Source: a virus (taxonomy: Duplodnaviria; Caudoviricetes). Taken from it: 64,000 nt of DNA. The stretch's first letter is position 1, and each line of letters opens with the position of its first letter. Location of the stretch: positions 64,001-128,000 of the IMG/VR virus record IMGVR_UViG_3300037067_013660; one strand, written 5' to 3'. Shown one piece after another: positions 3,915 to 63,415 of the stretch. The position numbers were made by a program, and so were the translations under genes. The notes beneath the pieces are model-generated. The model was not told the DNA's origin, searched no databases, and saw only the letters and a list, made by a program, of their open reading frames with translations.

Positions 3915-4685
3915 CTAACCATCTTCTTCGGGGTCCAGCATTTGCTCCATCATGACGCCCACGAGGTCGTGCTCGGGGTTGAGTTTCACGGCCTTGACGA
4001 CGTTACCTTCATCGTCCTGGTGGTCGTAGAAGTAGAGGATACCTTCTTGTTCTGCTTCCGACACGAATTTGCGGGCGTCGTCCGAGTTGCAGACCTTCAT
4101 CTGTATCGGTAGTGCCGTGCGGGTCAGGTAACTGAGGCCAACGTAAGGGATCGAGGTCGTCGCGATGAACTTGATGACGGCACGATAGACTTCTGACGCG
4201 TCGACCGTAACGTCTGGTTCAATGATGTGTTCGAGCGGCACGTACACGTTGGCGTTGCGTTTTAGTGGTTCTGTTGCCGTATGCGGACTGATCAATACCA
4301 TCATCCGTACCCAGTACTTTAATCGACGCATTACGCCAATACGATCTGGATTATTGGTCGCGATGATGACGACGTCTGGTGTGTTGCCCGATACAATGTT
4401 TCGATCCAGTATGTCCATGTTGATGTCGGCCCCGCAGATTGAACTAACGTCAAAGCCCAGCCGCTGCCATCCATTGTTTTGTGCGTCGCTTTGGTACAAT
4501 ACGGATTGTTGTATGCGACCAAAATTCATTATCGTCTTAATGATTTGATTTGGTAGGTCTGGTTGTCGCAATACCTCGGGTGGCAAGTCTACGAAGGTGT
4601 TCACGCCGGGCAGCACGTAGATCTTCTTGGCTTTGTCCCTCACTGAGATTCTGGGTTCTGTTTCGTATGACCGCATTTGCTCCAC
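3915..4685 (-). CDS. NYN/LabA-like (PIN-fold) protein with degenerate active site and C-terminal winged helix
   Basis: GADINMDILD, DVVIIATNNPDR (canonical VLVSGDGDF) and ATEPLKRNANVYVPLE follow the NYN pattern. Confidence 0.55.
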   Translation of the reverse strand: MEQMRSYETEPRISVRDKAKKIYVLPGVNTFVDLPPEVLRQPDLPNQIIKTIMNFGRIQQSVLYQSDAQNNGWQRLGFDVSSICGADINMDILDRNIVSGNTPDVVIIATNNPDRIGVMRRLKYWVRMMVLISPHTATEPLKRNANVYVPLEHIIEPDVTVDASEVYRAVIKFIATTSIPYVGLSYLTRTALPIQMKVCNSDDARKFVSEAEQEGILYFYDHQDDEGNVVKAVKLNPEHDLVGVMMEQMLDPEEDG

Positions 4686-7600
4686 CGTCTTTTCTTTTCA
4701 CTTCAGTTTTCGGTTGCCTGGTTATTCCATAAATTCTGATTCCATCGCCTGCATCTATGGCGTTTTCGTCATCGTAGCGTTTTTGCTTCTTCTCCTTTTT
4801 AACTTGTATATCATGAACTAAACTTTCTTCTAAGAAACGAGACGGTGACGACATCGATAAACTACCGTCGCGAGATCTGCGGGCACGCGGCCACGTGAGC
4901 CATAGGCGTTCTTGTGCCCGCGTCACCGCAACGAAAAATATGCGACGTTCTTCTTCGTAGTGCTGTCGTATGTCGTCTGACGTCATTGTTTGCCCAGGTT
5001 CTCCCCTTGGGTATAGAGGAGTCGCACCTTCAACGCAGCCGATTACGAATACGTTTTTGAACTCCAGTCCTTTGGCAGCGTGTGCTGTCAATAACGTCAC
5101 ACTGTTGGGGTCTTTGTCTTTTTCGTCCTGCTGCATTAGTTGTGTATGCTCAAGGAAACCTCGTAAACCTTTGTGTCGTTTCTTCTTGTCTTTGGTATCG
5201 TCGAACTGATTGGCTGCATTGACCAATTCATATAGGTCTTCGATCACACGGTCGCGATATTTTTCGTCTCTGATGTTTTCGGCGTAACCAAGGTATCCGC
5301 TGTTTTTGAGAATCGCCTCGATGATGGGACCGGCTTTACGTTGGTCCATACGACGCCATTGTGCGAACACATCTCGTAGGCGGCGGAATCCATCGGCTGC
5401 CGACGCCAGCATACCGCATTTATCATAGAGTCGTTTGCCCAGCGCGACGAACAGTCTTGTGTCCTCGACTTCAGCCGCACGATTGAACGCAGCGAAACTA
5501 ACGGCTCCGATGCCCCGCGTTGGTTTATTGACGATGCGGGTAAAGGACGTATCCTCCTGTGGGTTTACAAGGAGACGAGCGTATGCTAAGATATCTTTGA
5601 TGGCGGCACGGTTGTAGAACGACAGTGAGCCAACGACGCGGTATGGTATGTTGCGTCCAACCGCCTCGTCTTCGATGGCACGACTTAGACTACGGATCCT
5701 ATAGATAATGGCGAAGTCACGCCAGTCGTCTTTACCTAGCTTTACCATGTCGCGGATCGTATTGATGACGAATCGTGTTTCGTCTTCCGTTGTTTTCAGT
5801 CCGTAGGATTTAGGTGTTTCGCCCTTTTGTTTGTGCGTCACGATGGTTTTGTCGGGACGATTAGTATTGTGCGCGATCAGTGCGTTCGCGACGGCCGCGA
5901 TGCCCGGCACACTACGGAAATTGGTCTGTAGCGTATAGGTCTTGGTTTCTGGAAATACTTTGTAGAAACGTTCTGTGTTGAGAATGTCGGCACCGCGCCA
6001 CCCATAAATAGAATTGTGTACTAGAACATTATTCGCACAGTAGTTCCGCAACTCTGGTATAGATAAATCATACACGTAACCATCGTAATGCACCCTTTTG
6101 ACGGATATTATTTTTTCGTCTCGTACTTTACTGTCTAGCTGTACCACTGGTACGGTAATCCCTGGAAAAGCGTTACCTATGGGCATAAAATCATACGTTT
6201 TATCCTCAGTAAATTTAGCAGTACGCATAATATTTGCGTTTACGTTTTCTGCGACATGTCGTACCTCTTCGTATAACTTATCATAGTCTTTTAGTGATTT
6301 TTGTATTTTCCATCGAAATCTTGGATTTCTATTCGTTACGTGCCCGCCTAGGCGTTTACCAGCACTTACCCACAGATTTTTACTTGAACTGTGTAGTGAT
6401 AATGTATGTCCATGCACAACAGTTCCATACTCACCCTTACATTTGCGTCCTTGTGCAAACATAGAAAAATGTGCTGTGGTTCTGTGCGCCGTACTGCCGC
6501 CACTCGCTGTGTAGTGCGGATACTCAAATGACAGTCCAAGTTGTTCAAGACATTTACTTGCTCTGTATTTTGTGTCTATATTTGCGAATAGGTGATCTAT
6601 ACCTTCCTGTGTTATATTTATGTTTCTACCGCTACTGTAAAAGCATACAAGAGGTATTCCATAGCGTGTAGCTAAAGTTGCTTCCCATTCGGCCGCTTCA
6701 TTTTTATCGTTACATACGCGAAGAATCCAAGTTCGATCTGCGTGCTCTTGCCGCATACGTACAATGGGACCAAACGCTGATTTACCATTACCCTGACTAC
6801 GATACGATTTACACCATCCAATACGACAACCTACGTCTTCTTTGTACATTAGGTACACGTAGAACTTGTCGTCAGCATTTGTCGGTAGTTTGCCAAAAAT
6901 GCAGTGTTCAGGTGTGCCTCGTACGACCCTGTTTGATTCTGTTATTATTTCAATCAAATCGCCAACATATTTTCGTTTTGCCACTGCAGCAACTTTACCG
7001 TATGCAGTGTATCCATATCCGCTACCACCCAATACCCAATCTTTCTTTCTGATGGTTTCAATTGGGCGCGTACCATTGTTCGTGGTAATTGGCGTACCTG
7101 CAGGTAAGCATTGATCAGTATCCCCAACGATAAACACGTTGCCTCGCTGTTGCGTCAACAGCCGAACCAATTCAAACTGTGAGAAGTTCGTATCCTGCCA
7201 CTCGTCTACCAGCATGTGGTGAATATTATGATTGTAGAACTTCTGTAATGATTCGTTGCGCCGCAACCCCAACACCGTCTTCATGATGAGGTCGTCGAAG
7301 TCCAGCATACCGTCGTGTACCAGTCGTCGCTGGTACTCTCGGTAGTACGGGATGTACTCGGGAAACCGAGTATTGGATTCATTCAGGTCGTCTGGGGTTC
7401 GAACGTAGTCTTTGTGTCCAGAGATCCAACTGCGAACGTACCGTACGTTCTCCTCGTTTTCTTCTGGGTTCCGCCGCATTTGTCGCGCTACCGTCGCGAT
7501 CGCAATTTTCGTCAACTCGTTGGCGTCGCCTTCGTCTGCGATCGTAAAGTTGCGCGGTACGCCGTACTGTTTGAAGTTGGCACGCAGTAGCGTAGCGCAA

Positions 7601-7881
7601 AACGAATGGAACGTCGAGAGCCAGACGTGGCGACCCGCACCCCCGACGAGACGCTGGACCCGCTCCTTCATTTCGCCCGCCGCCTTGTTCGTGAACGTCA
7701 CGCCCACGATGTTGGTAGGGCTGACGCCGTGCTTGATCAGGTAGGCGATGCGCTTCGTGATGGTCGAGGTTTTGCCCGAACCTGCGCAACTCATCACCAT
7801 GGCGGGGCCCGCGAGATGCAGGACCGCGACACGCTGCTCTGGCGTCAGCCCTTTTAGGATGTCTAGGCATTCCAGACTCAA
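4537..7881 (-). CDS. uvrD: UvrD/PcrA-family SF1 helicase containing an intein
   Basis: Motifs CAGSGKT, VTFTNKAA, VDEWQD, GDTDQ/SIYGWRGA, NFRS, TAHAAKGLEF and EERRIFFVAVTRA. Confidence 0.95.
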   Translation of the reverse strand: MSLECLDILKGLTPEQRVAVLHLAGPAMVMSCAGSGKTSTITKRIAYLIKHGVSPTNIVGVTFTNKAAGEMKERVQRLVGGAGRHVWLSTFHSFCATLLRANFKQYGVPRNFTIADEGDANELTKIAIATVARQMRRNPEENEENVRYVRSWISGHKDYVRTPDDLNESNTRFPEYIPYYREYQRRLVHDGMLDFDDLIMKTVLGLRRNESLQKFYNHNIHHMLVDEWQDTNFSQFELVRLLTQQRGNVFIVGDTDQCLPAGTPITTNNGTRPIETIRKKDWVLGGSGYGYTAYGKVAAVAKRKYVGDLIEIITESNRVVRGTPEHCIFGKLPTNADDKFYVYLMYKEDVGCRIGWCKSYRSQGNGKSAFGPIVRMRQEHADRTWILRVCNDKNEAAEWEATLATRYGIPLVCFYSSGRNINITQEGIDHLFANIDTKYRASKCLEQLGLSFEYPHYTASGGSTAHRTTAHFSMFAQGRKCKGEYGTVVHGHTLSLHSSSKNLWVSAGKRLGGHVTNRNPRFRWKIQKSLKDYDKLYEEVRHVAENVNANIMRTAKFTEDKTYDFMPIGNAFPGITVPVVQLDSKVRDEKIISVKRVHYDGYVYDLSIPELRNYCANNVLVHNSIYGWRGADILNTERFYKVFPETKTYTLQTNFRSVPGIAAVANALIAHNTNRPDKTIVTHKQKGETPKSYGLKTTEDETRFVINTIRDMVKLGKDDWRDFAIIYRIRSLSRAIEDEAVGRNIPYRVVGSLSFYNRAAIKDILAYARLLVNPQEDTSFTRIVNKPTRGIGAVSFAAFNRAAEVEDTRLFVALGKRLYDKCGMLASAADGFRRLRDVFAQWRRMDQRKAGPIIEAILKNSGYLGYAENIRDEKYRDRVIEDLYELVNAANQFDDTKDKKKRHKGLRGFLEHTQLMQQDEKDKDPNSVTLLTAHAAKGLEFKNVFVIGCVEGATPLYPRGEPGQTMTSDDIRQHYEEERRIFFVAVTRAQERLWLTWPRARRSRDGSLSMSSPSRFLEESLVHDIQVKKEKKQKRYDDENAIDAGDGIRIYGITRQPKTEVKRKDGGANAVIRNRTQNLSEGQSQEDLRAARREHLRRLATRGIATTRPTKSNH
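6013..7110 (-). mobile_element. Intein (366 aa) in UvrD with a GIY-YIG-like endonuclease region
   Basis: GDTDQ|CLPAGT...YVYDLSIPELRNYCANNVLVHN|SIYG, with block B TPEH and internal FYVYLMYKEDVGCRIGWC. Visibly AT-richer than the flanks. Confidence 0.9.
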
Positions 7882-28423: not shown

Positions 28424-29916
28424 AAAGATTTGGTTGGAGGTTTTGGTTCAGGTCGTTTTGTTTTATCTGGTCTGTTTTCTCTAGCGTACCGGATCCTAGC
28501 CTTCGCGATCTCGACGTACTCGGGTTCTTGTTCAATGCCGTAGAAATTACGTTTGAGCGTCACGGCTGCGACGCCTGTGGTACCGCTACCACAAAATGGG
28601 TCTAATACGAGGTCGTTGGGTCTGGAACCCAGCGTTACGAGGTAGTGCATGAGCTTGACGGACTTAACGGTCGGATGGGAATTGGCATGGAGGGGCCGCC
28701 CCTCCATGCCATCGACCGTGTGAAGTTTGGGATCTACTTTTGTTGCGGTATTGAAACCGTCGCCGTATACTTCGCGCTTGGCTCGTTTTTGTAAGTCGTC
28801 TAGTCCAGCGTTCTTTTCTCGTCGCGATGGCTTCGCTACATACAGAAATGGGAATGTTGCTTGTGCGGATTCGGGCAAGTCACCGATGCGTTCAGCGAAC
28901 CAAGCGTCTAGGTCGAAGTACCGCGAGACAGAACCATTGTTATTTGCAAACCTTTGCATCGCGGTTTTGTCTGTAACGTCTTTGCCGTTTCCGAAACATC
29001 CACCGAACGACGCCTTACCCCCACCATGAGACTTAGTTGGACCTGCTCCGCGCAAAGCGTCGTCCTGTACCAGTACGTTGGCGTGAACACGACCAGACGG
29101 TTGTACTACCGTGGGTCTATCGGATCCTGCTTTATTCATTCCCCAAACTTGACCAGAAACGTCTGTTTCGCGTTTATTACGATTCATTACACGACCGACT
29201 TGTGTTGCGTCGGCCGATGGGTTTACGGGTATTCTACAATCGTCCAGCCAGGTGCAACCTTTTCTGTTGACCAGCGTCTGATCAATGTAGGTTGTTTCGG
29301 TAATGGGTTTCATCACCACCACAATATTTTCTAGGTTCGGCCGTGGCTGGTAGCCAGCGTAACTACCGTTAAGGCGTTTGGCTTCTTCGGTAGCAGGGGC
29401 AGTAACAAGTCTAGTACCTCTTTTATGTCTAGCACTACGATCTGTTCTTCCTTCACCTGATCGCCACGCATCATAGTTATCGCCGCCGCCAGACGGTACT
29501 TCTGCAACCACCTCTCGTTCCACTCCCGCTCGTTTGTCTAGGTGCTTGCTAATGTTTTTAGCTTTGCCGAATCCTTGAGAATGAATCCAGTAAATAGATG
29601 TATAGCCAATGACAAAACCGGCTTTTTGCAACCGTAGGATCAGCTTCGCCAGACAGTCTTGTCTAGGGGAACACATGATGAACGCGAAGGCGCCGGGCTT
29701 CAGGACGCGCAAACACTCCCGCCAGATCTTTGTGCTGGGAACGTCCACGTCCCACTTGGCCGCCATGAAGCCACCGCTGGCTTTGGTTCTCTTACCCCGT
29801 GGGCTCACGGGTGTCAGGCCGTAGGGCGGATCCGTCACGATGCAGTCAACGGTTTCGTCGGGAAACCGTTTCAGCACGTCCAGGCAGTTGCCTAGTTTGA
29901 CCCGAGCCTTCAGCAT
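28405..29916 (-). CDS. N6-A DNA methyltransferase (beta class)
   Basis: IVTDPPY, HPTVKS, VLDPFCGSGTT. Confidence 0.92.
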   Translation of the reverse strand: MLKARVKLGNCLDVLKRFPDETVDCIVTDPPYGLTPVSPRGKRTKASGGFMAAKWDVDVPSTKIWRECLRVLKPGAFAFIMCSPRQDCLAKLILRLQKAGFVIGYTSIYWIHSQGFGKAKNISKHLDKRAGVEREVVAEVPSGGGDNYDAWRSGEGRTDRSARHKRGTRLVTAPATEEAKRLNGSYAGYQPRPNLENIVVVMKPITETTYIDQTLVNRKGCTWLDDCRIPVNPSADATQVGRVMNRNKRETDVSGQVWGMNKAGSDRPTVVQPSGRVHANVLVQDDALRGAGPTKSHGGGKASFGGCFGNGKDVTDKTAMQRFANNNGSVSRYFDLDAWFAERIGDLPESAQATFPFLYVAKPSRREKNAGLDDLQKRAKREVYGDGFNTATKVDPKLHTVDGMEGRPLHANSHPTVKSVKLMHYLVTLGSRPNDLVLDPFCGSGTTGVAAVTLKRNFYGIEQEPEYVEIAKARIRYARENRPDKTKRPEPKPPTKSLWGPKC

Positions 29917-32900
29917 TGCGTGTATCCACAGGTACGGCAGCACGGACACTTGCCCGGTATGATGACGAGCGTACAGTTACCGCACCCCGGACAATAATCG
30001 TACGGTAGCTTGATGCCGTCTTGCTCTGCCTTTTTGATTTCGGTTTCGATTTCGGTACGGTATTCGTCTACGTCGTGACCGTTGCCAGGATCGCCCTCCA
30101 GCACGTAGCGACTGATTTGATCCAGTTTCGTAACGTCGCCGCCGCAGGTCCGCAACTCGTCGAGCAACTCTTTCATCGGCTGAATACCAAACGGTAGGTT
30201 CGCGACGGGGAAATCGGCTTCAAGGTACCGGTTCAGTATCTTCGCGATGGCGTCAGGCATCGACCGTTTGGCCTCGGGTCCAAACCCTACTTGACCACGG
30301 CCCAAGATGTCGATCAATTGATCGCGGATCAATTCGAGCCGCATCTGCTGATTGATCTTCTGGTCGTTGGGGAACCGTAGGATCATGCTCATGAGGCGAC
30401 CGATTGCTTCGCCGTCGGCCGACGCATCACCCTTACCCGTGATGACGAAGACGTCGATGGGGTCACCAGTTTGTGGATCGTGTCGGATCGTTAGGTGGAT
30501 GGTACCGATGGGCGACTCTTCCGAGAACGTTACGCTCATGCCTGCGTTGGGACGTGGGCGTACGACGGCGGTTTCGGATGACGCTTCAACCACTTGCACG
30601 GGTACGGGCTTGTCGGTGTAGAGGACCTGTACGTCGCGGCTGCTGTCGCGGTAAACGGTTCCGCCCTTACACCCTAGTTCCCACATCAACATGTAGGTAT
30701 AGGCTACGTCCTTGACGGTCGCGTTGGCGGGCAAATTCGCAGTTTTTGATATCGCCGAATCAACCCACCGTTGCATCGCGGCTTGGGTTTTGACGTGGTG
30801 CTCGGGCGTGATGCCCCGCTGTGCCGTCACGACGTACAGAGGCCATTTTTGTGGTTCCGTACCGAACTGTTGGAAGATTTGATCGACGACCCCAGCTTTT
30901 TCTTTCACGATGCCGATGCGTGTCGTGCTGGTATACTGGAGGTCGAAGAACGGTTCGCATCCCGTCGACGTATTCATGATGGCGGCTGTACTTCCAGTCG
31001 GCGCAATGGTGGTGACGGTGACGTTACGGATGCCATGCTTGCGAACCAACGCCCGTACGTCTTTGGGCATCTGCTTCATGAAGCCGCTGTTGAGGAAATG
31101 GTCCACTTGAAACCGTGGGAACGCACCGCGTTCTTTTGCCAACTGGACCGACGCCTTGTACGCCGTCGTCGTGAAGACCCGCATCAACTCGTCGGTAAAC
31201 GCGAGGGCGTCGGCAGATCCGTAGCACAGACCTAACCGCATCAAGGCGTCGCCGTAACCGAGGATCCCGAGTCCTATGCGCCGTTCCGACAACTGTTGCT
31301 TCTTTACGGCGTCGTCGTGGTAGACGTTCAGGTCGTTGACGTTGTCGAGGAACCGGACGCCCATCTGTACGTCAGACTTTAGGGTTTCCCAATCAAACGC
31401 TTGCTTGGCTTGCTCGGTTGTCTGGACGGTGTGGGGCAATGTCGTGGTCGTGACGTAACGCCCGAGGTTCAGGTGTGCTAAATTGCACACTGCGTTGTCC
31501 GGAAGTACCTGTTCGCTGCAGTTCGACAATATGATGCCGTTGCCGATGAACGTACTGGTCGTGGTATTGACGACATCGTACACGTCGGCGTCTCCGGCAA
31601 ATTCGCACGATACCATTTTCGCGGTACCGCCGGCTACCTGTACGATAGATTCTTTCGTCAGGTCTTTAATCGCTACCTTCCCTGTATTCGTCAGTACTCT
31701 GTGGTCGGGTGTGGCTTGTAGCGTGTACGTCTGTCCTTCGGGTTGGTCTGCGCGCAGTACCAACGTTACGGTTGGTTTATGTCCAGTGAAGACGACTCGT
31801 TCTGCTTTATCGGATCGGTGTTGTGGCGAAATTGTGGTCAGTAATTTGTCTGCTCCGTGCTGTCGCGCGTCTACGGCGACCAGACAGTTTTGTTCCCCTG
31901 CCATATCTTTTACGCGGCGGTGGTACAGATTTCCGTCGGGCCGCGCGCACGTCACCATGGTATCGCCCGTAACGCAGGGATTAGTTCCGATCAACGGTGC
32001 GTAGTACCACGAGTTCGACATTTGGTTTGCCCGCTCCATGAAGATGATGCCAGGCTCACCCGCTTCCCACGCGTGCTGGATGATGCGGTTCCACAAATCC
32101 CTGGCTTTGATGGTCCGGTATACTACGATGGGTTTTTTCAATTCGTCGCGCCACTGCCAGATGTTGCCGTTCCACTGGTCGTCGTAACCGGGAGCGTCGG
32201 TGTCGGGGAATACGAGATCCCAGTCAGCGTTTTGCTGCACCGCCCGCATGAAATCTTCGGTCAGCAGGATGCTGACGTTGGCGTTGCACAGCAAATTCTT
32301 GTTCATGCTGAAGGTTTTGCCGTCGGGTAACGGGATTTCTTCCCGCAGCGACTTGACGTCTACCAATTCCAATACGTCTGGGTGCCAGCACCACTGACAG
32401 AGCATCGCGGCGCCGCGCCGGCTTCCACCTTGTTCTACCGCGCCGGTGATTTGGCTAAACTGTTCCGCCCACGAGACGCTACCACTGGACCTGCCGTTGA
32501 CCTTGCGGACGACCGTGCCTTTGGGCCGTAGTACTGATAGCGGCGTACCGACGCCCCCGCCCCGCGAGTACGTTTCGAACAACCGCCCCCAGTGTTCCGT
32601 GATACCGCGACGACTGTCTTGCGTGATGTTGAAGACGTAGCAGTTGAACAGCGTGAGGTCGTAGCCGGGGCGTCCTAACCCCGAGAGGATCCGGCCAGCC
32701 GGTACGAACCGTTCCGCCACCATCGCGGTCTCCACGGCTTCGGCGAATTTCTTGCGGTCCTTTTTCTTCTCCACGGTACTGATGGCCGTGGCGACGCGGC
32801 GGCAAATGTCTGGGTAGGTTTTTTCCGTCACGTAGTCCAAACGGCTACGGGGGATCTTTGGTTCCGTGGTGCCGTCGGTATCGAGCTTGACGTCGTAGGT

Positions 32901-33152
32901 GCCGTCAGGATTTACGCCCTGGATCCATCCGATCTCCCGTGACTCCACGGGGCGGCCGGTGCGATCGAACTTACGCTGTAACGACGCCACCACCATGTCG
33001 TTGATTTGGAGCTGGGCGTCGGGGTTCTTAACGGCATAACGGTCAAGACGGACACGATCTCGATACTCCATGGGGAGGTCCTCGGGCGCGCCTACGGCAC
33101 GAGTTTTAGATTTTGCTACGGCGACGGAACTGTTCCGCCATTGGTTTGACAA
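29910..33152 (-). CDS. nrdJ: Class II (B12-dependent) ribonucleotide reductase with mini-intein, C-terminal TSCPD-like domain and Zn ribbon
   Basis: FVPAGRIL, TLFNCYV, GGSRRGA, TNP|C..|CSEQ, CNLAHLNL, TIAPTGS, AISKT, KGGTVYRD. Confidence 0.93.
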   Translation of the reverse strand: MSNQWRNSSVAVAKSKTRAVGAPEDLPMEYRDRVRLDRYAVKNPDAQLQINDMVVASLQRKFDRTGRPVESREIGWIQGVNPDGTYDVKLDTDGTTEPKIPRSRLDYVTEKTYPDICRRVATAISTVEKKKDRKKFAEAVETAMVAERFVPAGRILSGLGRPGYDLTLFNCYVFNITQDSRRGITEHWGRLFETYSRGGGVGTPLSVLRPKGTVVRKVNGRSSGSVSWAEQFSQITGAVEQGGSRRGAAMLCQWCWHPDVLELVDVKSLREEIPLPDGKTFSMNKNLLCNANVSILLTEDFMRAVQQNADWDLVFPDTDAPGYDDQWNGNIWQWRDELKKPIVVYRTIKARDLWNRIIQHAWEAGEPGIIFMERANQMSNSWYYAPLIGTNPCVTGDTMVTCARPDGNLYHRRVKDMAGEQNCLVAVDARQHGADKLLTTISPQHRSDKAERVVFTGHKPTVTLVLRADQPEGQTYTLQATPDHRVLTNTGKVAIKDLTKESIVQVAGGTAKMVSCEFAGDADVYDVVNTTTSTFIGNGIILSNCSEQVLPDNAVCNLAHLNLGRYVTTTTLPHTVQTTEQAKQAFDWETLKSDVQMGVRFLDNVNDLNVYHDDAVKKQQLSERRIGLGILGYGDALMRLGLCYGSADALAFTDELMRVFTTTAYKASVQLAKERGAFPRFQVDHFLNSGFMKQMPKDVRALVRKHGIRNVTVTTIAPTGSTAAIMNTSTGCEPFFDLQYTSTTRIGIVKEKAGVVDQIFQQFGTEPQKWPLYVVTAQRGITPEHHVKTQAAMQRWVDSAISKTANLPANATVKDVAYTYMLMWELGCKGGTVYRDSSRDVQVLYTDKPVPVQVVEASSETAVVRPRPNAGMSVTFSEESPIGTIHLTIRHDPQTGDPIDVFVITGKGDASADGEAIGRLMSMILRFPNDQKINQQMRLELIRDQLIDILGRGQVGFGPEAKRSMPDAIAKILNRYLEADFPVANLPFGIQPMKELLDELRTCGGDVTKLDQISRYVLEGDPGNGHDVDEYRTEIETEIKKAEQDGIKLPYDYCPGCGNCTLVIIPGKCPCCRTCGYTQC
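31521..31976 (-). mobile_element. Mini-intein (152 aa) in NrdJ
   Basis: IGTNP|CVTGDT...ATPDHRV...DVYDV...FIGNGIILSN|CSEQ. Confidence 0.9.
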
Positions 33153-59655: not shown

Positions 59656-59902
59656 GTGGCAGCCTCCAGGTTTTGGTTTTCCCGTCTAAGTTGAACCGTT
59701 CGGCTACGTTACGCCAGGTCGCGTTTCGTGTCAACTACTTTGTTCGGGGCATTGCCTAATGATTCCGCTACGTTGTTGCTTGGGGCCAAACTTTTTGCAT
59801 AGGACGGATCCCGCTGGATCGCTTGGGGTGGGGCTGGGGACGCCATGGGACTAGATCCAATCCGATCCTATTCGATTTATTGGCTTGGCGTTGGTTCCCG
59901 TG

Positions 59903-60877: not shown

Positions 60878-60910
60878 AAAAAACCCAGCAAGGTGACGCT
60901 TGCTGGGTTT
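60878..60910 (+). terminator. Intrinsic terminator-like hairpin
   Basis: AAACCCAGCAAG-gtgacg-CTTGCTGGGTTT right after the stop codon. Confidence 0.7.
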
Positions 60911-61451
60911 GCCGAAGTCGGCACCGGCTAGAACCTCGAAATACATCAAGATTCTAGCCGCTCCGCTACAAGAAGTCAAGGGTTATTTTGTGGTTGGCGT
61001 GCCGACCTAACTACAAGAAATCCTTGGGAAAGGGGAGAGAACCATGTTTTCGTTGACGATTACATGGCCTAGACGATGGTGTCTACGCTGCGAGATTTCG
61101 CGTGACGGCTTAAGTCTAGACATTACGAAACGTTAGCCTCTGCTCGGGGAGTCCTGTACTCCCCGAGCATCGAGTGCGCTTCAGCTACCTAAGCTGCCGA
61201 TCTCTTGCCTAGCGATCCGCCTGGGTGATGGTCGTCCAGCAGCTCGCCCAAGGAACCCAGGCACAAGATCCAGTAGTTTACTCAACCAGCCGCAACGTAG
61301 GACACGGCACGTCTTTCACCACCACGGGTGCAGCATCGGCGGCAGTGGGATCGTCCTCCAGATCGGGCAAGTAGCCGCAGTGCGGACAAGCGCCAGCACG
61401 GAAATAGACGATGAGCCTGACGGCGATGGTACTTAGCTTGCCGTTTGGGCA

Positions 61452-61994
61452 TCAACGGTACTTCGGCCAGTTTTCCGTTTCGCGTGGGTGGCGCGCTCGC
61501 ATTGGGTAGCGTTCAGGGTGCTGTAAATGACGTGCACAAAGGTCTGCATCTAAGGCAGGCCAGTAGAAGCCACCATCACCGATGAGTTGGACGTCTCGGA
61601 TCTCGTCGTCGGTGCCGTAGCGAAAAATTGGGTACGTGGTAAAATCGATCCAGTAGAGTTCTGTGTCGTAGTACAGCCAAAGACCCTTTGCCATAACCGC
61701 GTAAACAAACAAACGCGATCTATTGGCTGTTCTGTGGGCAGCAAAAAATGTACGCCAGGCGTCCATGATGACGTCATAGTGTTGCTCTACATAACGTTTT
61801 GACTTCCTGATGTCTGCGGCTTTTACGGCGGATTCTTTATGTTTTAGAGATACAGCACCAGCCTTAACTTTACCAAGCCACCACATAACAGTGCCACTAG
61901 GAGTGTCGACGTGTACGTGGGCTACGCTTCCTTCTGTACTATTAAAATAAAAACGAAAGCCGCCGACATTGATGGTAGTGATGGTGGGTGACAT
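61452..61994 (-). CDS. DUF4160-DUF2442 fusion (toxin-antitoxin-like)
   Basis: N-half GGFRFYFNSTE..AHVHV...WRTFF; C-half YPIFRYGTDDEI.DVQL...GFYWPALDADL...PERYPM. Promoter TTGACA-17-TAGGCT at 62018-62046. Confidence 0.75.
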   Translation of the reverse strand: MSPTITTINVGGFRFYFNSTEGSVAHVHVDTPSGTVMWWLGKVKAGAVSLKHKESAVKAADIRKSKRYVEQHYDVIMDAWRTFFAAHRTANRSRLFVYAVMAKGLWLYYDTELYWIDFTTYPIFRYGTDDEIRDVQLIGDGGFYWPALDADLCARHLQHPERYPMRARHPRETENWPKYR

Positions 61995-62087
61995 TAATAG
62001 TACCTCTTCATTTCGTTAGCCTACTACGAAGCGCAGGGTCTGTCAATACCTATTATTCCTTACCCACTAGGTAGGATATGATTGGGC

Positions 62088-62116
62088 TTGACACCCCAGT
62101 CAGCGCCCGCTAGGAT
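62088..62116 (+). promoter_or_regulatory. Sigma70-type promoter TTGACA-17-TAGGAT for the leader/tRNA operon
   Basis: Consensus -35 with 17-nt spacer. Confidence 0.7.
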
Positions 62117-62138
62117 GCAGGCGACAAGGAAACGACCG

Positions 62139-62282
62139 ATGCGAACCCGAACCACCACCCAGGCCAAAGAGAAGCGCGTGACAGTGCGCCGTCTGGACTG
62201 GTTTGCCTCCTCACCGTGCAGTATTCCATCGTATCCCGATAATATGCATGGTCTTACCAAGGAGAACAGCCGGGCGGCATAG
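62139..62282 (+). CDS. Putative leader peptide (47 aa) of the tRNA operon
   Basis: AAGGA ribosome-binding site, tandem TAG TAA stops, all 20 amino acids, 36 different codons. Confidence 0.7.
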   Translation: MRTRTTTQAKEKRVTVRRLDWFASSPCSIPSYPDNMHGLTKENSRAA

Positions 62283-62304
62283 TAAGACCGAAAGAAACTG
62301 AACC

Positions 62305-62341
62305 AGGCCGCCCAGCGAAAGCTCGGTGGCCTTTTTGTTTT
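62305..62341 (+). terminator. Intrinsic terminator/attenuator
   Basis: AGGCCGCC-c-AGC GAAA GCT-c-GGTGGCCT followed by TTTTGTTTT. Confidence 0.85.
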
Positions 62342-62400
62342 CCGGGTGCTGTTTTGCAGTGCGGAACAGTAGCGTAGCACGGTGCGAATCCGTGGCCCGG
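62342..62400 (+). ncRNA. tRNA-like remnant (acceptor stem plus T arm)
   Basis: CCGGGT...CACGG TGCGAAT CCGTG GCCCGG, with no proper D or anticodon arm. Confidence 0.35.
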
Positions 62401-62619
62401 CATCGCCCGTGGAAAGCACGTGCGGGTTATGTTGGTTGGTGGCGACGAGCGTTGGTCCCGTGACGTGGTGGAAGCGGTAGCGGCGGCGCGGTCTCGACTG
62501 CGGTGCGGTGGTGTCGTAAGGCACTGCACGGTAGAGTTGAAAAACAAATAGTAAGGAGGTGATGTTTGCAGGAATTCCGTGGACACGTTCCGCTCCGTTG
62601 ATATGGGCGTGTCCACACT

Positions 62620-62690
62620 GGAGCTATGGTGTAGTGGCAACACGTTGGACCGTCTATCCGAAACCCCGAGTTCGATTCTCGGTAGCTCCG
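62620..62690 (+). tRNA. tRNA-Asp(GTC) with C33 and U37
   Basis: Cloverleaf; anticodon arm TTGGA CCGTCTA TCCGA. Confidence 0.8.
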
Positions 62691-62695
62691 TTGAC

Positions 62696-62770
62696 GGGGA
62701 TATAGTGTAATCTGGAAACACGGGTGGCCTGATCCGAACCACCAATTGCGGTTCAAATCCGATATCCCTG
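62696..62770 (+). tRNA. Atypical or pseudo tRNA with 11-nt anticodon loop
   Basis: GGTGG CCTGATCCGAA CCACC; bulged T stem. Confidence 0.5.
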
Positions 62771-62774
62771 ATTT

Positions 62775-62846
62775 GGACTCTTGGTGTAATCGGCAGCACA
62801 GGAGACTGAAGATCTCTTAGTCCAGATTCGATTTCTGGGGGGTCCA
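62775..62846 (+). tRNA. tRNA-Phe(GAA)
   Basis: GGAGA CTGAAGA TCTCT. Confidence 0.85.
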
Positions 62847-62848
62847 TT

Positions 62849-62920
62849 GCCTCGGTAGCCTAGTGGTCAGGCACCAGTCCGTTAAACTGTTTTACGCGAG
62901 TTCGACTCTCGCCCGAGGCG
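62849..62920 (+). tRNA. tRNA-Asn(GTT) with C33
   Basis: CCAGT CCGTTAA ACTGT. Confidence 0.85.
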
Positions 62921-62931
62921 TTAGGTATTTT

Positions 62932-63002
62932 GGAGAGATCGTCCAATGGTAGGACCCCAGACCGTAACTCTGCTAATCTAGGTTCGAGTCCTGCCCTCGT
63001 CA
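62932..63002 (+). tRNA. tRNA with GTA (Tyr) anticodon, C33, short variable loop and weak acceptor stem
   Basis: CCAGA CCGTAAC TCTGC; the body resembles tRNA-Gln. Confidence 0.6.
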
Positions 63003-63007
63003 TCTAC

Positions 63008-63080
63008 GTGCCTGTAGTTCAATTGGCAGAACGATCGCTTGATGGGCGATAGGTTGGGGGTTCGACGCCCTCCAGGCACA
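63008..63080 (+). tRNA. tRNA-Ile(GAT) with G37 and G38
   Basis: ATCGC TTGATGG GCGAT. Confidence 0.85.
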
Positions 63081-63084
63081 TTTT

Positions 63085-63165
63085 GGCTGGTACCGTGCAG
63101 GGCACAAACTAGGTCCGAACCCTAGGGCGGTCTAACGGCCGGGAGTTCGATTCTTCTACCAGCCT
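63085..63165 (+). tRNA. tRNA-Ser(CGA) with C33 and long variable arm
   Basis: CTAGG TCCGAAC CCTAG. Confidence 0.7.
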
Positions 63166-63172
63166 TTGTTTT

Positions 63173-63257
63173 GGAAGGATGGCTGAGTGGTAAGGGACCG
63201 GATTGCTAATCCGAGGTCATCGTAATGGATGCGCGTGTTCAATCCACGCCACCTCCT
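63173..63257 (+). tRNA. tRNA-Ser(GCT)
   Basis: CCGGA TTGCTAA TCCGA; long variable arm; imperfect acceptor stem. Confidence 0.7.
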
Positions 63258-63258
63258 T

Positions 63259-63342
63259 GGAGGACGAGATGCAAGGCGCGCAAGCTGGTTGGAAGCCAGT
63301 TAGATCTGAAAAGATCGCCGAGTTCGATTCTCGGGCCTTCCG
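63259..63342 (+). tRNA. tRNA-Ser(GGA)
   Basis: GCTGG TTGGAAG CCAGT; long variable arm. Confidence 0.75.
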
Positions 63343-63343
63343 T

Positions 63344-63415
63344 GCGACCGTAGTGTAATTGGTAGCACGTAAGTCTTCCAAACTTGCGGTACGAGTTCAA
63401 GTCTCGTCGGTTGCT
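63344..63415 (+). tRNA. tRNA-Gly(TCC)
   Basis: TAAGT CTTCCAA ACTTG. Confidence 0.9.

Follow-up and report, generated by a model that had tools for sequence, protein, structure and literature searches.

Ahead of a ten-gene tRNA array in a very large phage lies a short leader (62088-62341) that we tentatively interpret as a ribosome-mediated transcription attenuator. Coordinates refer to the window, the whole stretch of 64,000 nucleotides that was analyzed, which corresponds to bases 64001-128000 of the IMG/VR record IMGVR_UViG_3300037067_013660 (196,895 bases, CheckV completeness about 56%). The regulation of phage tRNA arrays is barely known, and an attenuator in control of such an array would be the new part of this description. 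The interpretation is supported by the alternative helices of the leader, their excess over shuffled sequences, their conservation and the linkage of the leader to the array, all computed here. From the sequence we infer that the leader open reading frame (ORF) is translated, that the terminator is regulated and in which direction the system responds. The initial annotation of this DNA had proposed an attenuator whose leader peptide samples most decoding tRNAs once. The part of that proposal in which the leader ORF gates the array is supported by helices that exceed shuffled controls, ribosome-masked folding, conservation, linkage and a putative compensatory change, while the pan-codon sampling is not.

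In the mechanism that we propose, host RNA polymerase would start at a sigma-70-type promoter and synthesize a leader RNA of about 220 nt that carries a translated 47-codon ORF and can adopt two folds. Region 2 (62267-62278) would have two alternative partners, region 1 (62188-62200) and the 5' arm of the terminator (62307-62313). A ribosome positioned in the last six codons or at the stop would cover region 2, the terminator would form, and transcription would end before the tRNAs. With the ribosome delayed upstream (or absent, in the equilibrium picture), region 2 would be free to pair with the terminator arm, and once this antiterminator is formed, the polymerase would read through a 277-nt spacer into the tRNA genes. 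Slow decoding of the leader would in this way lead to more phage tRNA synthesis.

Organization of the leader

The promoter, ribosome-binding site, 47-codon ORF, terminator and both complementarities described in the initial annotation were all recovered in place. The elements of the leader are as follows.

62088-62116, plus strand: sigma-70-like, host-type promoter TTGACA-N17-TAGGAT, matching 10 of 12 consensus positions, with the transcription start expected near 62123
62126-62131, plus strand: Shine-Dalgarno-like sequence AAGGAA, 8 nt before the ATG at 62139 (9 nt in the relatives)
62139-62282, plus strand: leader ORF, 47 sense codons and a TAG stop, followed by a next in-frame TAA
62305-62341, plus strand: intrinsic terminator (regions 3 and 4) with a GAAA loop and a T tract at 62332-62341

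The ATG lies about 16 nt downstream of the predicted transcription start. The pairing of AAGGAA with the 3' end of 16S rRNA (-5.4 kcal/mol) is typical for the genes of this phage, for which the median of the best-scoring starts is -6.0, and is equalled by just 10% of background ATGs. The terminator stem (62305-62332) consists of 8 bp, a 1x1 mismatch, 3 bp and the GAAA loop, has a stability of -20.4 kcal/mol and is followed by TTTTTGTTTT; because of the internal mismatch it was overlooked by a simple hairpin scanner.

The main rival explanation is an independent early unit, a gene for a 47-aa phage protein or a small RNA of about 220 nt with its own promoter and an efficient terminator but no functional connection to the tRNAs, in which case the array would depend on constitutive leak-through or on a promoter that escaped recognition. 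We consider this explanation rather unlikely, and the evidence on it is divided. In its favor, the ORF was called as a protein once by a gene caller (P0004), and its codon-usage score of 0.07 per codon is nearer to that of in-frame genes (0.22 +/- 0.14) than to that of off-frame sequence (-0.40 +/- 0.24). Against it, the peptide has no homologue save itself in 1.84 billion representative sequences or in the 5.8-billion set, and neither peptide nor RNA gave a lead in Rfam, Pfam, PHROG or Atlas.

Alternative RNA structures

The segments that take part in the alternative folds, all of them on the plus strand, are listed below.

62188-62200, plus strand: region 1, the 5' strand of helix 1:2 (anti-antiterminator), defined from the minimum-energy fold
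62213-62252, plus strand: inner hairpin between regions 1 and 2
62267-62278, plus strand: region 2, whose partner is either region 1 or the 5' arm of the terminator, and which ends one base before the TAG stop codon at 62280
62250-62257 with 62282-62289, plus strand: stem GGTCTTAC/GTAAGACC (-12.8 kcal/mol), which encloses region 2

The complementarity of GGGCGGC (62272-62278) to GCCGCCC (62307-62313), on which the initial annotation had based its antiterminator, was confirmed. Extended by two further pairs, it forms helix 2:3 with a stability of -19.5 kcal/mol. The minimum-energy fold also contains a helix absent from that annotation, 1:2, in which 62188-62200 pairs with 62267-62278 at -21.6 to -22.7 kcal/mol. 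The pairing of region 1 with region 2 gives the leader the classical three-helix layout of an attenuator, in which 1:2 (-21.6 kcal/mol), 2:3 (-19.5 kcal/mol) and 3:4 (-20.4 kcal/mol) are mutually exclusive and of similar strength. The stem GGTCTTAC/GTAAGACC, which had been put forward as the competing structure, conflicts with the inner hairpin.

The complements behind helices 2:3 and 1:2 are stronger than in dinucleotide-shuffled sequences; p is 0.0055 for 2:3, or 0.002 when only the last 46 nt are considered, and 0.0095 for 1:2. Among ten terminator-like hairpins in the contig, the one in the leader has the strongest upstream complement to its 5' arm. A GC-rich complement of 7-9 bp to the terminator 5' arm, located at a stop codon, would weaken a simple terminator, and its low probability by chance (p=0.002-0.0055) thus argues against a self-contained protein or small-RNA unit. 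The whole leader RNA folds better than its shuffles (z=-2.4), which counts in favor of such a unit.

Folding of the growing transcript indicates that helix 1:2 forms first and that the optimum shifts to 2:3 after region 3 has emerged. At full length, the fold with the antiterminator (-72.2 kcal/mol) is close in energy to that with the terminator plus 1:2 (-68.8 kcal/mol). When the ribosome footprint was masked, a calculation proposed in the initial annotation, helix 2:3 was kept with the A site at codons 9-41 and lost with the A site at codon 43 to the stop. A reading of the leader as a Thr- and Arg-sensing attenuator through the ACC and CGA repeats in codons 2-7 was rejected, since a ribosome at these codons ends about 18 nt short of region 1.

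The near equality of the two folds in energy would also suit a riboregulator in which the same helices are switched by a protein, a small RNA, a tRNA or a metabolite, and the ORF is incidental. This we regard as improbable. No match of the leader to any Rfam family, the T-box included, was found even at E values up to 10; the only matches were sub-threshold and driven by the terminator, namely BjrC68 at 17.5 bits (threshold 39) and the trpB motif at 17.9 bits (threshold 59).

Conservation in related contigs

Since the peptide gave no homologue, relatives were reached through the gene divergent from the leader, which encodes a DUF4160/DUF2442 protein. The sole relative available as DNA is the Logan contig L007, which aligns to 61389-62472 of the window. 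For the contigs of P0009, P0010 and P0011, the leader region is known from gene-caller translations of the antisense strand. Wobble positions coincide in the antisense and leader frames, so that such translations determine the first two bases for the majority of leader codons. The back-translated sets were aligned to the window; what is said below of P0009 and P0011 is therefore deduced from antisense translations and not read from DNA. A further contig, L005, represents the same phage with one single-nucleotide polymorphism at 62540. Searches of IMG/VR by the peptide, the neighboring proteins, DNA patterns and alignment of the antisense translations returned no relatives, as did searches of genome contigs. 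The pattern of the tRNA-Asp anticodon arm matched only an unrelated contig without a tRNA (L003), and two contigs that encode a DUF4160/DUF2442 protein 50% identical to that of the phage (L004 and L006) have no leader or array nearby.

Divergence from L007 amounts to 2.5% of sites over the segment 62187-62467, against 21% in the adjacent protein gene (32% at third positions). The leader ORF of L007 is intact, with seven differing sites, all transitions, that result in A9T, K10E, V16A and A23T and in two synonymous changes. Its promoter counterpart is TTGACG-N17-TAGGAT. All helix strands are invariant, as is the stem GGTCTTAC/GTAAGACC, and the terminator is identical. In the inner hairpin, the pair 62216:62249 changes from G-U to G-C and two apical pairs are lost.

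The most distant contig is that of P0009, whose antisense residues require T in place of C62275 and A in place of G62310. The two positions are partners in one pair of helix 2:3, which suggests compensation within the antiterminator; the other helices would accept both substitutions as well, as G-U in 1:2 and as A-U in 3:4. The chance of such a coincidence is roughly estimated at 0.05-0.1. The apparent preservation of the 2:3 pairing would not be expected of a gene or small RNA unconnected with the array. At the level of antisense translation, the terminator is conserved in both P0009 and P0011.

The indels in P0009 and P0011 sit in linkers between the helices. Inside the ORF their sums are divisible by three (+3 and -6; -3, +4 and -1); outside it they are +1, +4, +2 and +1. 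The ATG and the Shine-Dalgarno-like purines are kept in L007, P0011 and P0009; the stop codon is kept in L007 and lies one codon later, at the backup TAA, in P0011. The confinement of indels to linkers, together with nucleotide conservation that extends to synonymous sites, would also fit a riboregulator with an incidental ORF. The maintenance of ATG, ribosome-binding site and frame in three relatives, of a stop that borders region 2 in no fewer than two of them, and of indels in multiples of three speaks for translation instead.

Within the ORF, codons 2-16 vary among the relatives, and codons 17-42 are nearly invariant; most substitutions in this core affect third positions and leave the plus-frame peptide unchanged. 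The near-invariant core would fit a selected phage peptide; the free evolution of the N-terminal third would not.

The antisense ORF itself (62060-62524, 154 aa), which gene callers picked in the relatives, was considered as a real gene and rejected. A 4-nt indel breaks its frame in L007, the frame switches in P0009 and P0011, and the core substitutions are non-synonymous in the antisense frame.

The tRNA array and its linkage to the leader

Downstream of the terminator, two features occupy the remainder of the region.

62342-62618, plus strand: spacer of 277 nt, 96.8% identical to L007, ending in a 9-bp hairpin that adjoins tRNA-Asp
62619-63415, plus strand: array of ten tRNAs in the order Asp, an odd tRNA with a UGA anticodon, Phe, Asn, Tyr, Ile, Ser-CGA, Ser-GCU, Ser-GGA and Gly-UCC

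ARAGORN finds seven of these tRNAs at default and all ten at relaxed settings (62619-63415); Rfam adds three tRNA-like matches to the seven. All four serine anticodons (UGA, CGA, GCU and GGA) are present in the array.

Linkage of leader and array is seen in about four related contigs. The related Logan contigs come from the samples SRR22315507, SRR22315505, SRR22388041 and ERR10755944 and encode the proteins P0002, P0006/P0010, P0007/P0011 and P0009. In that of P0007 and P0011, an extra antitoxin-like gene stands between the DUF4160/DUF2442 gene and the leader, and the leader is still found beside a gene-free stretch of 1.5 kb, the size of the array. In the contig of P0006 and P0010, the spacer and tRNA-Asp adjoin the DUF4160/DUF2442 gene. 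The leader thus keeps the array as its neighbor though its other flank differs, which indicates that it travels with the array. A promoter scan detected no sigma-70-like site in the spacer, which leaves the array without a promoter-like site of its own there and further argues against a leader unrelated to the tRNAs. Elsewhere in the phage, a TTGACA-N17-TAATAT promoter abuts the 5' end of a tRNA-Leu(UAG) gene at genome position 135357.

Several further observations concern the array and the spacer. The Asp, Tyr and UGA-anticodon tRNAs have C33 instead of U33. In the UGA-anticodon tRNA, the anticodon stem is mismatched or else the loop measures 11 nt, and the long variable arm usual for serine tRNAs is missing; the variable arm of the Tyr tRNA is short. 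A perfect 9-bp hairpin (62579-62616, GTGGACACG ... CGTGTCCAC) stops three bases upstream of the tRNA-Asp 5' end and could have a role in processing or protecting the precursor tRNA. The spacer sequence TAAGGAGGTGATG (62553-62565) is complementary over 12 bases to the 16S rRNA 3' end. An ATG within it, at 62562, opens a 48-codon frame that reaches into tRNA-Asp (62559-62705), and the P0010 contig (GAGGTGATG) retains the purine core of this sequence only in part. Directly after the T tract, 62342-62405 contains a T-arm-like CACGG-TGCGAAT-CCGTG with flanks CCGGG...CCCGG. This segment has three changes in L007 and no Rfam tRNA match, and could be a degenerate tRNA-like element.

Weighing of the attenuator interpretation

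A number of observations weigh against control of the array by attenuation. The main weakness lies in P0009, where a 2-nt insertion puts both TAG and TAA out of frame and the old stop position becomes TGN; the ORF ends there only if N is A and otherwise continues through the terminator. Equilibrium folding predicts read-through without any ribosome, contrary to the classical attenuators. The control region has no tandem regulatory codons, and the repeats of ACC and CGA in codons 2-7 lie more than 25 nt upstream of region 1. L007, being 96% identical, is unable to show covariation, and both the compensatory pair and the pattern of indels depend on back-translation of the antisense ORF. The peptide core is conserved more strictly than a mere track for the ribosome needs, and the spacer is conserved as strongly as the leader; a recent exchange of the whole module could be the source of part of this conservation. 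Finally, a promoter specific to the phage is possible in the spacer.

The run of unrepeated codons

The counts on which the pan-codon design had been built are correct: the leader ORF uses 36 distinct codons and encodes all 20 amino acids, and codons 15-47 form a run of 33 without a repeat. The design supposes that the leader has been selected to hold most codons once, so that loss of any tRNA would stall the ribosome and open the array. We judge it very improbable.

Taken per ORF, the run is indeed unusual. The probability that 33 fixed codons are all distinct is 2.0e-5 under uniform codon usage and 2.5e-6 under that of the phage, and for a run of at least 33 anywhere in a 47-codon ORF it is 1.3e-4 and 3e-5, respectively; corresponding values are 0.0085 for 36 distinct codons and 0.011 for all 20 amino acids. 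The longest run among 55,400 windows from real genes of the phage is 26, and the leader run is the longest across the six frames of the 197-kb contig. The geometry of the helices is also favorable, as a stall at roughly codons 9-41 would free region 2. On the genome scale, local codon shuffles in all open frames gave a maximum of at least 33 in 8.7% of trials, with a typical maximum of 30-31, so that the run is distinguished solely by its location. Codons 1-14 of the ORF do contain repeats, with ACC present four times and CGA twice.

The relatives provide more direct evidence on this point. L007, a homologous leader of lower codon diversity, has 34 distinct codons and a longest run of 22, and of the five codons altered inside the run, three now duplicate another codon (GCA, ACC and TCA). 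Codon 16 is GCN in L007, P0009 and P0011, hence GTG at this position in the window, a part of the run, appears to be recently derived. P0011 implies a change of GAT to AAT alongside an existing AAT. These comparisons indicate that codon uniqueness is not maintained by selection, and the run is most likely incidental. Its lack of conservation removes the most spectacular and least likely part of the earlier claim.

Possible match between leader codons and array tRNAs

Another feature of the ORF could account for part of its codon diversity.

62196-62243, plus strand: codons 20-35, which include a cognate codon for nine of the ten downstream tRNAs

The matched tRNAs are Asp, Phe, Ser-GGA, Ser-UGA, Ser-GCU, Ile, Ser-CGA, Tyr and Asn, with Gly-UCC unmatched, and each of the serine codons TCC, TCA, AGT and TCG fits a different serine tRNA of the array. 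Only 0.06% of windows from real genes contain a stretch of at most 14 codons that covers nine of ten tRNAs, and random sets of ten decoding boxes are covered equally well by the leader in 0.2% of cases. The significance of the match, for a statistic chosen post hoc, depends on the tRNAs included: p=0.0006 with ten, 0.005 with nine and 0.054 when only the seven canonical ones are counted. In terms of the seven amino acids of the array, the match is not significant (p=0.21). Changes of TCG to TCA in L007 and of TCC to TCR in P0009 show that a strict one-to-one matching is not obviously conserved.

A more specific version of the attenuator, which we regard as doubtful but which would be considerably more interesting, has the leader act as a feedback sensor tuned to the tRNAs that it controls, by means of codons 20-35, which extend from region 1 into the inner hairpin. 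If this version is correct, a shortage of any tRNA supplied by the array, caused for instance by a host anticodon nuclease, would stall the ribosome, free the antiterminator and induce exactly the replacement tRNAs. This would amount to the logic of the trp operon applied to tRNA supply, and is both narrower and more testable than the pan-codon idea. A reading based on the cluster of the four NAU codons of the queuosine family in the ORF (Y32, D34, N35 and H37; rough post-hoc p about 0.03) was rejected; D34 is replaced by N in P0011.

Comparison with known regulatory systems

The putative attenuator shares with those of trp, his, thr, pheA and ilv a promoter-proximal short ORF with a Shine-Dalgarno sequence and the mutually exclusive helices 1:2, 2:3 and 3:4. 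As in attenuators of the trp/his/thr type, an intrinsic terminator precedes the genes to be regulated, and the stop codon is placed so that a ribosome finishing translation blocks region 2. Unlike them, it is a phage element without tandem codons for a single amino acid, its ORF is long (47 codons) with region 1 beginning only at codon 17, and its output is tRNAs and not biosynthetic enzymes.

In its behavior the leader would be nearer to systems that respond to stalling whatever the amino acid. The bmrB-bmrCD system of Bacillus subtilis combines a small ORF with alternative stem-loops, where ribosome stalling is reported to raise read-through and the rare codons of bmrB to influence the decision (PMC4191407). 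A ribosome-mediated attenuator with a small upstream ORF, in which stalling raises read-through, is likewise reported for vmlR of B. subtilis (PMC9226507), and the leader of tet(M) in Tn916 is summarized as a ribosome-mediated attenuator in 10.64898/2026.10.01.756105. These elements control resistance genes in response to ribosome-targeting drugs, in contrast to the phage leader, whose output would be tRNAs and which would most likely respond to decoding capacity during infection. The leader showed no sequence similarity to the bmrB, vmlR or tet(M) elements.

The leader also resembles T-box riboswitches, which have leaders of about 200 nt with competing antiterminator and terminator helices and sense the state of tRNA. 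In contrast to the T-boxes, it has no T-box match in Rfam, and no specifier or T-box sequence was recognized in it; moreover, T-boxes control genes of aminoacyl-tRNA synthetases and amino-acid metabolism, and need no ORF.

Phage tRNAs have been reported to replace host tRNAs depleted by host nucleases (PMC10264068, PMC11555353). The present array is similar to such anti-defense arrays in that it groups tRNAs whose anticodon loops are altered, as by C33 in Asp and Tyr. Among the literature abstracts searched, none described a leader ORF or an attenuator before a phage tRNA array, or this kind of control for tRNA genes. If the attenuator reading is true, the phage would gauge decoding capacity and make tRNAs on demand; if the match between codons and tRNAs holds in relatives, the leader could serve to read out the tRNA shortages that a phage expects.

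Genomic context

The leader is preceded on the opposite strand by a divergent gene with its own promoter.

61452-61994, minus strand: DUF4160/DUF2442 gene, a single 180-aa fusion, divergent from the leader
62019-62047, minus strand: promoter TTGACA-N17-TAGGCT of this gene

The gene evolves much faster than the adjacent leader (78.6% versus 97% identity to L007). In related contigs its neighbors are HEPN, SecB-like or TacA-like antitoxin genes, surroundings of the toxin-antitoxin type.

Near-consensus host-type promoters are clustered on both strands from window position 59734 to past the window end, amid tRNAs, HNH genes and small ORFs. Seven TTGACA-N17/18-TAnnnT sites occur in 16 kb (genome 123.7-140 kb), where about 0.4 are estimated by chance, and this promoter-rich stretch looks like an early region under the control of host polymerase. 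On the minus strand at 60881-60979, the promoter TTGACT-N17-TAGAAT at 60979 is followed about 40 nt later by a 12-bp terminator hairpin (60910-60881), probably forming a stand-alone small RNA. The presence of such short promoter-plus-terminator units nearby adds to the case for the leader being another unit of the same kind, separate from the tRNAs.

Most genes of the window are on the minus strand, among them those for ribonucleotide reductase, an intein-bearing UvrD helicase, an AAA ATPase and a DNA methylase. The UvrD-type helicase gene with its intein interruption is at 4537-7881 (minus strand), and the ribonucleotide reductase, which has a C-terminal TSCPD domain, is encoded at 29910-33152. 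A search of INPHARED with both DNA and proteins found no cultured phage similar in DNA or in any large protein. Outside the window, an IS605 OrfB/TnpB-like gene at genome 12283-13510 is 91% identical to positions 1255-2484 of L007, an identity that points to a mobile element common to this phage and the phage of L007.

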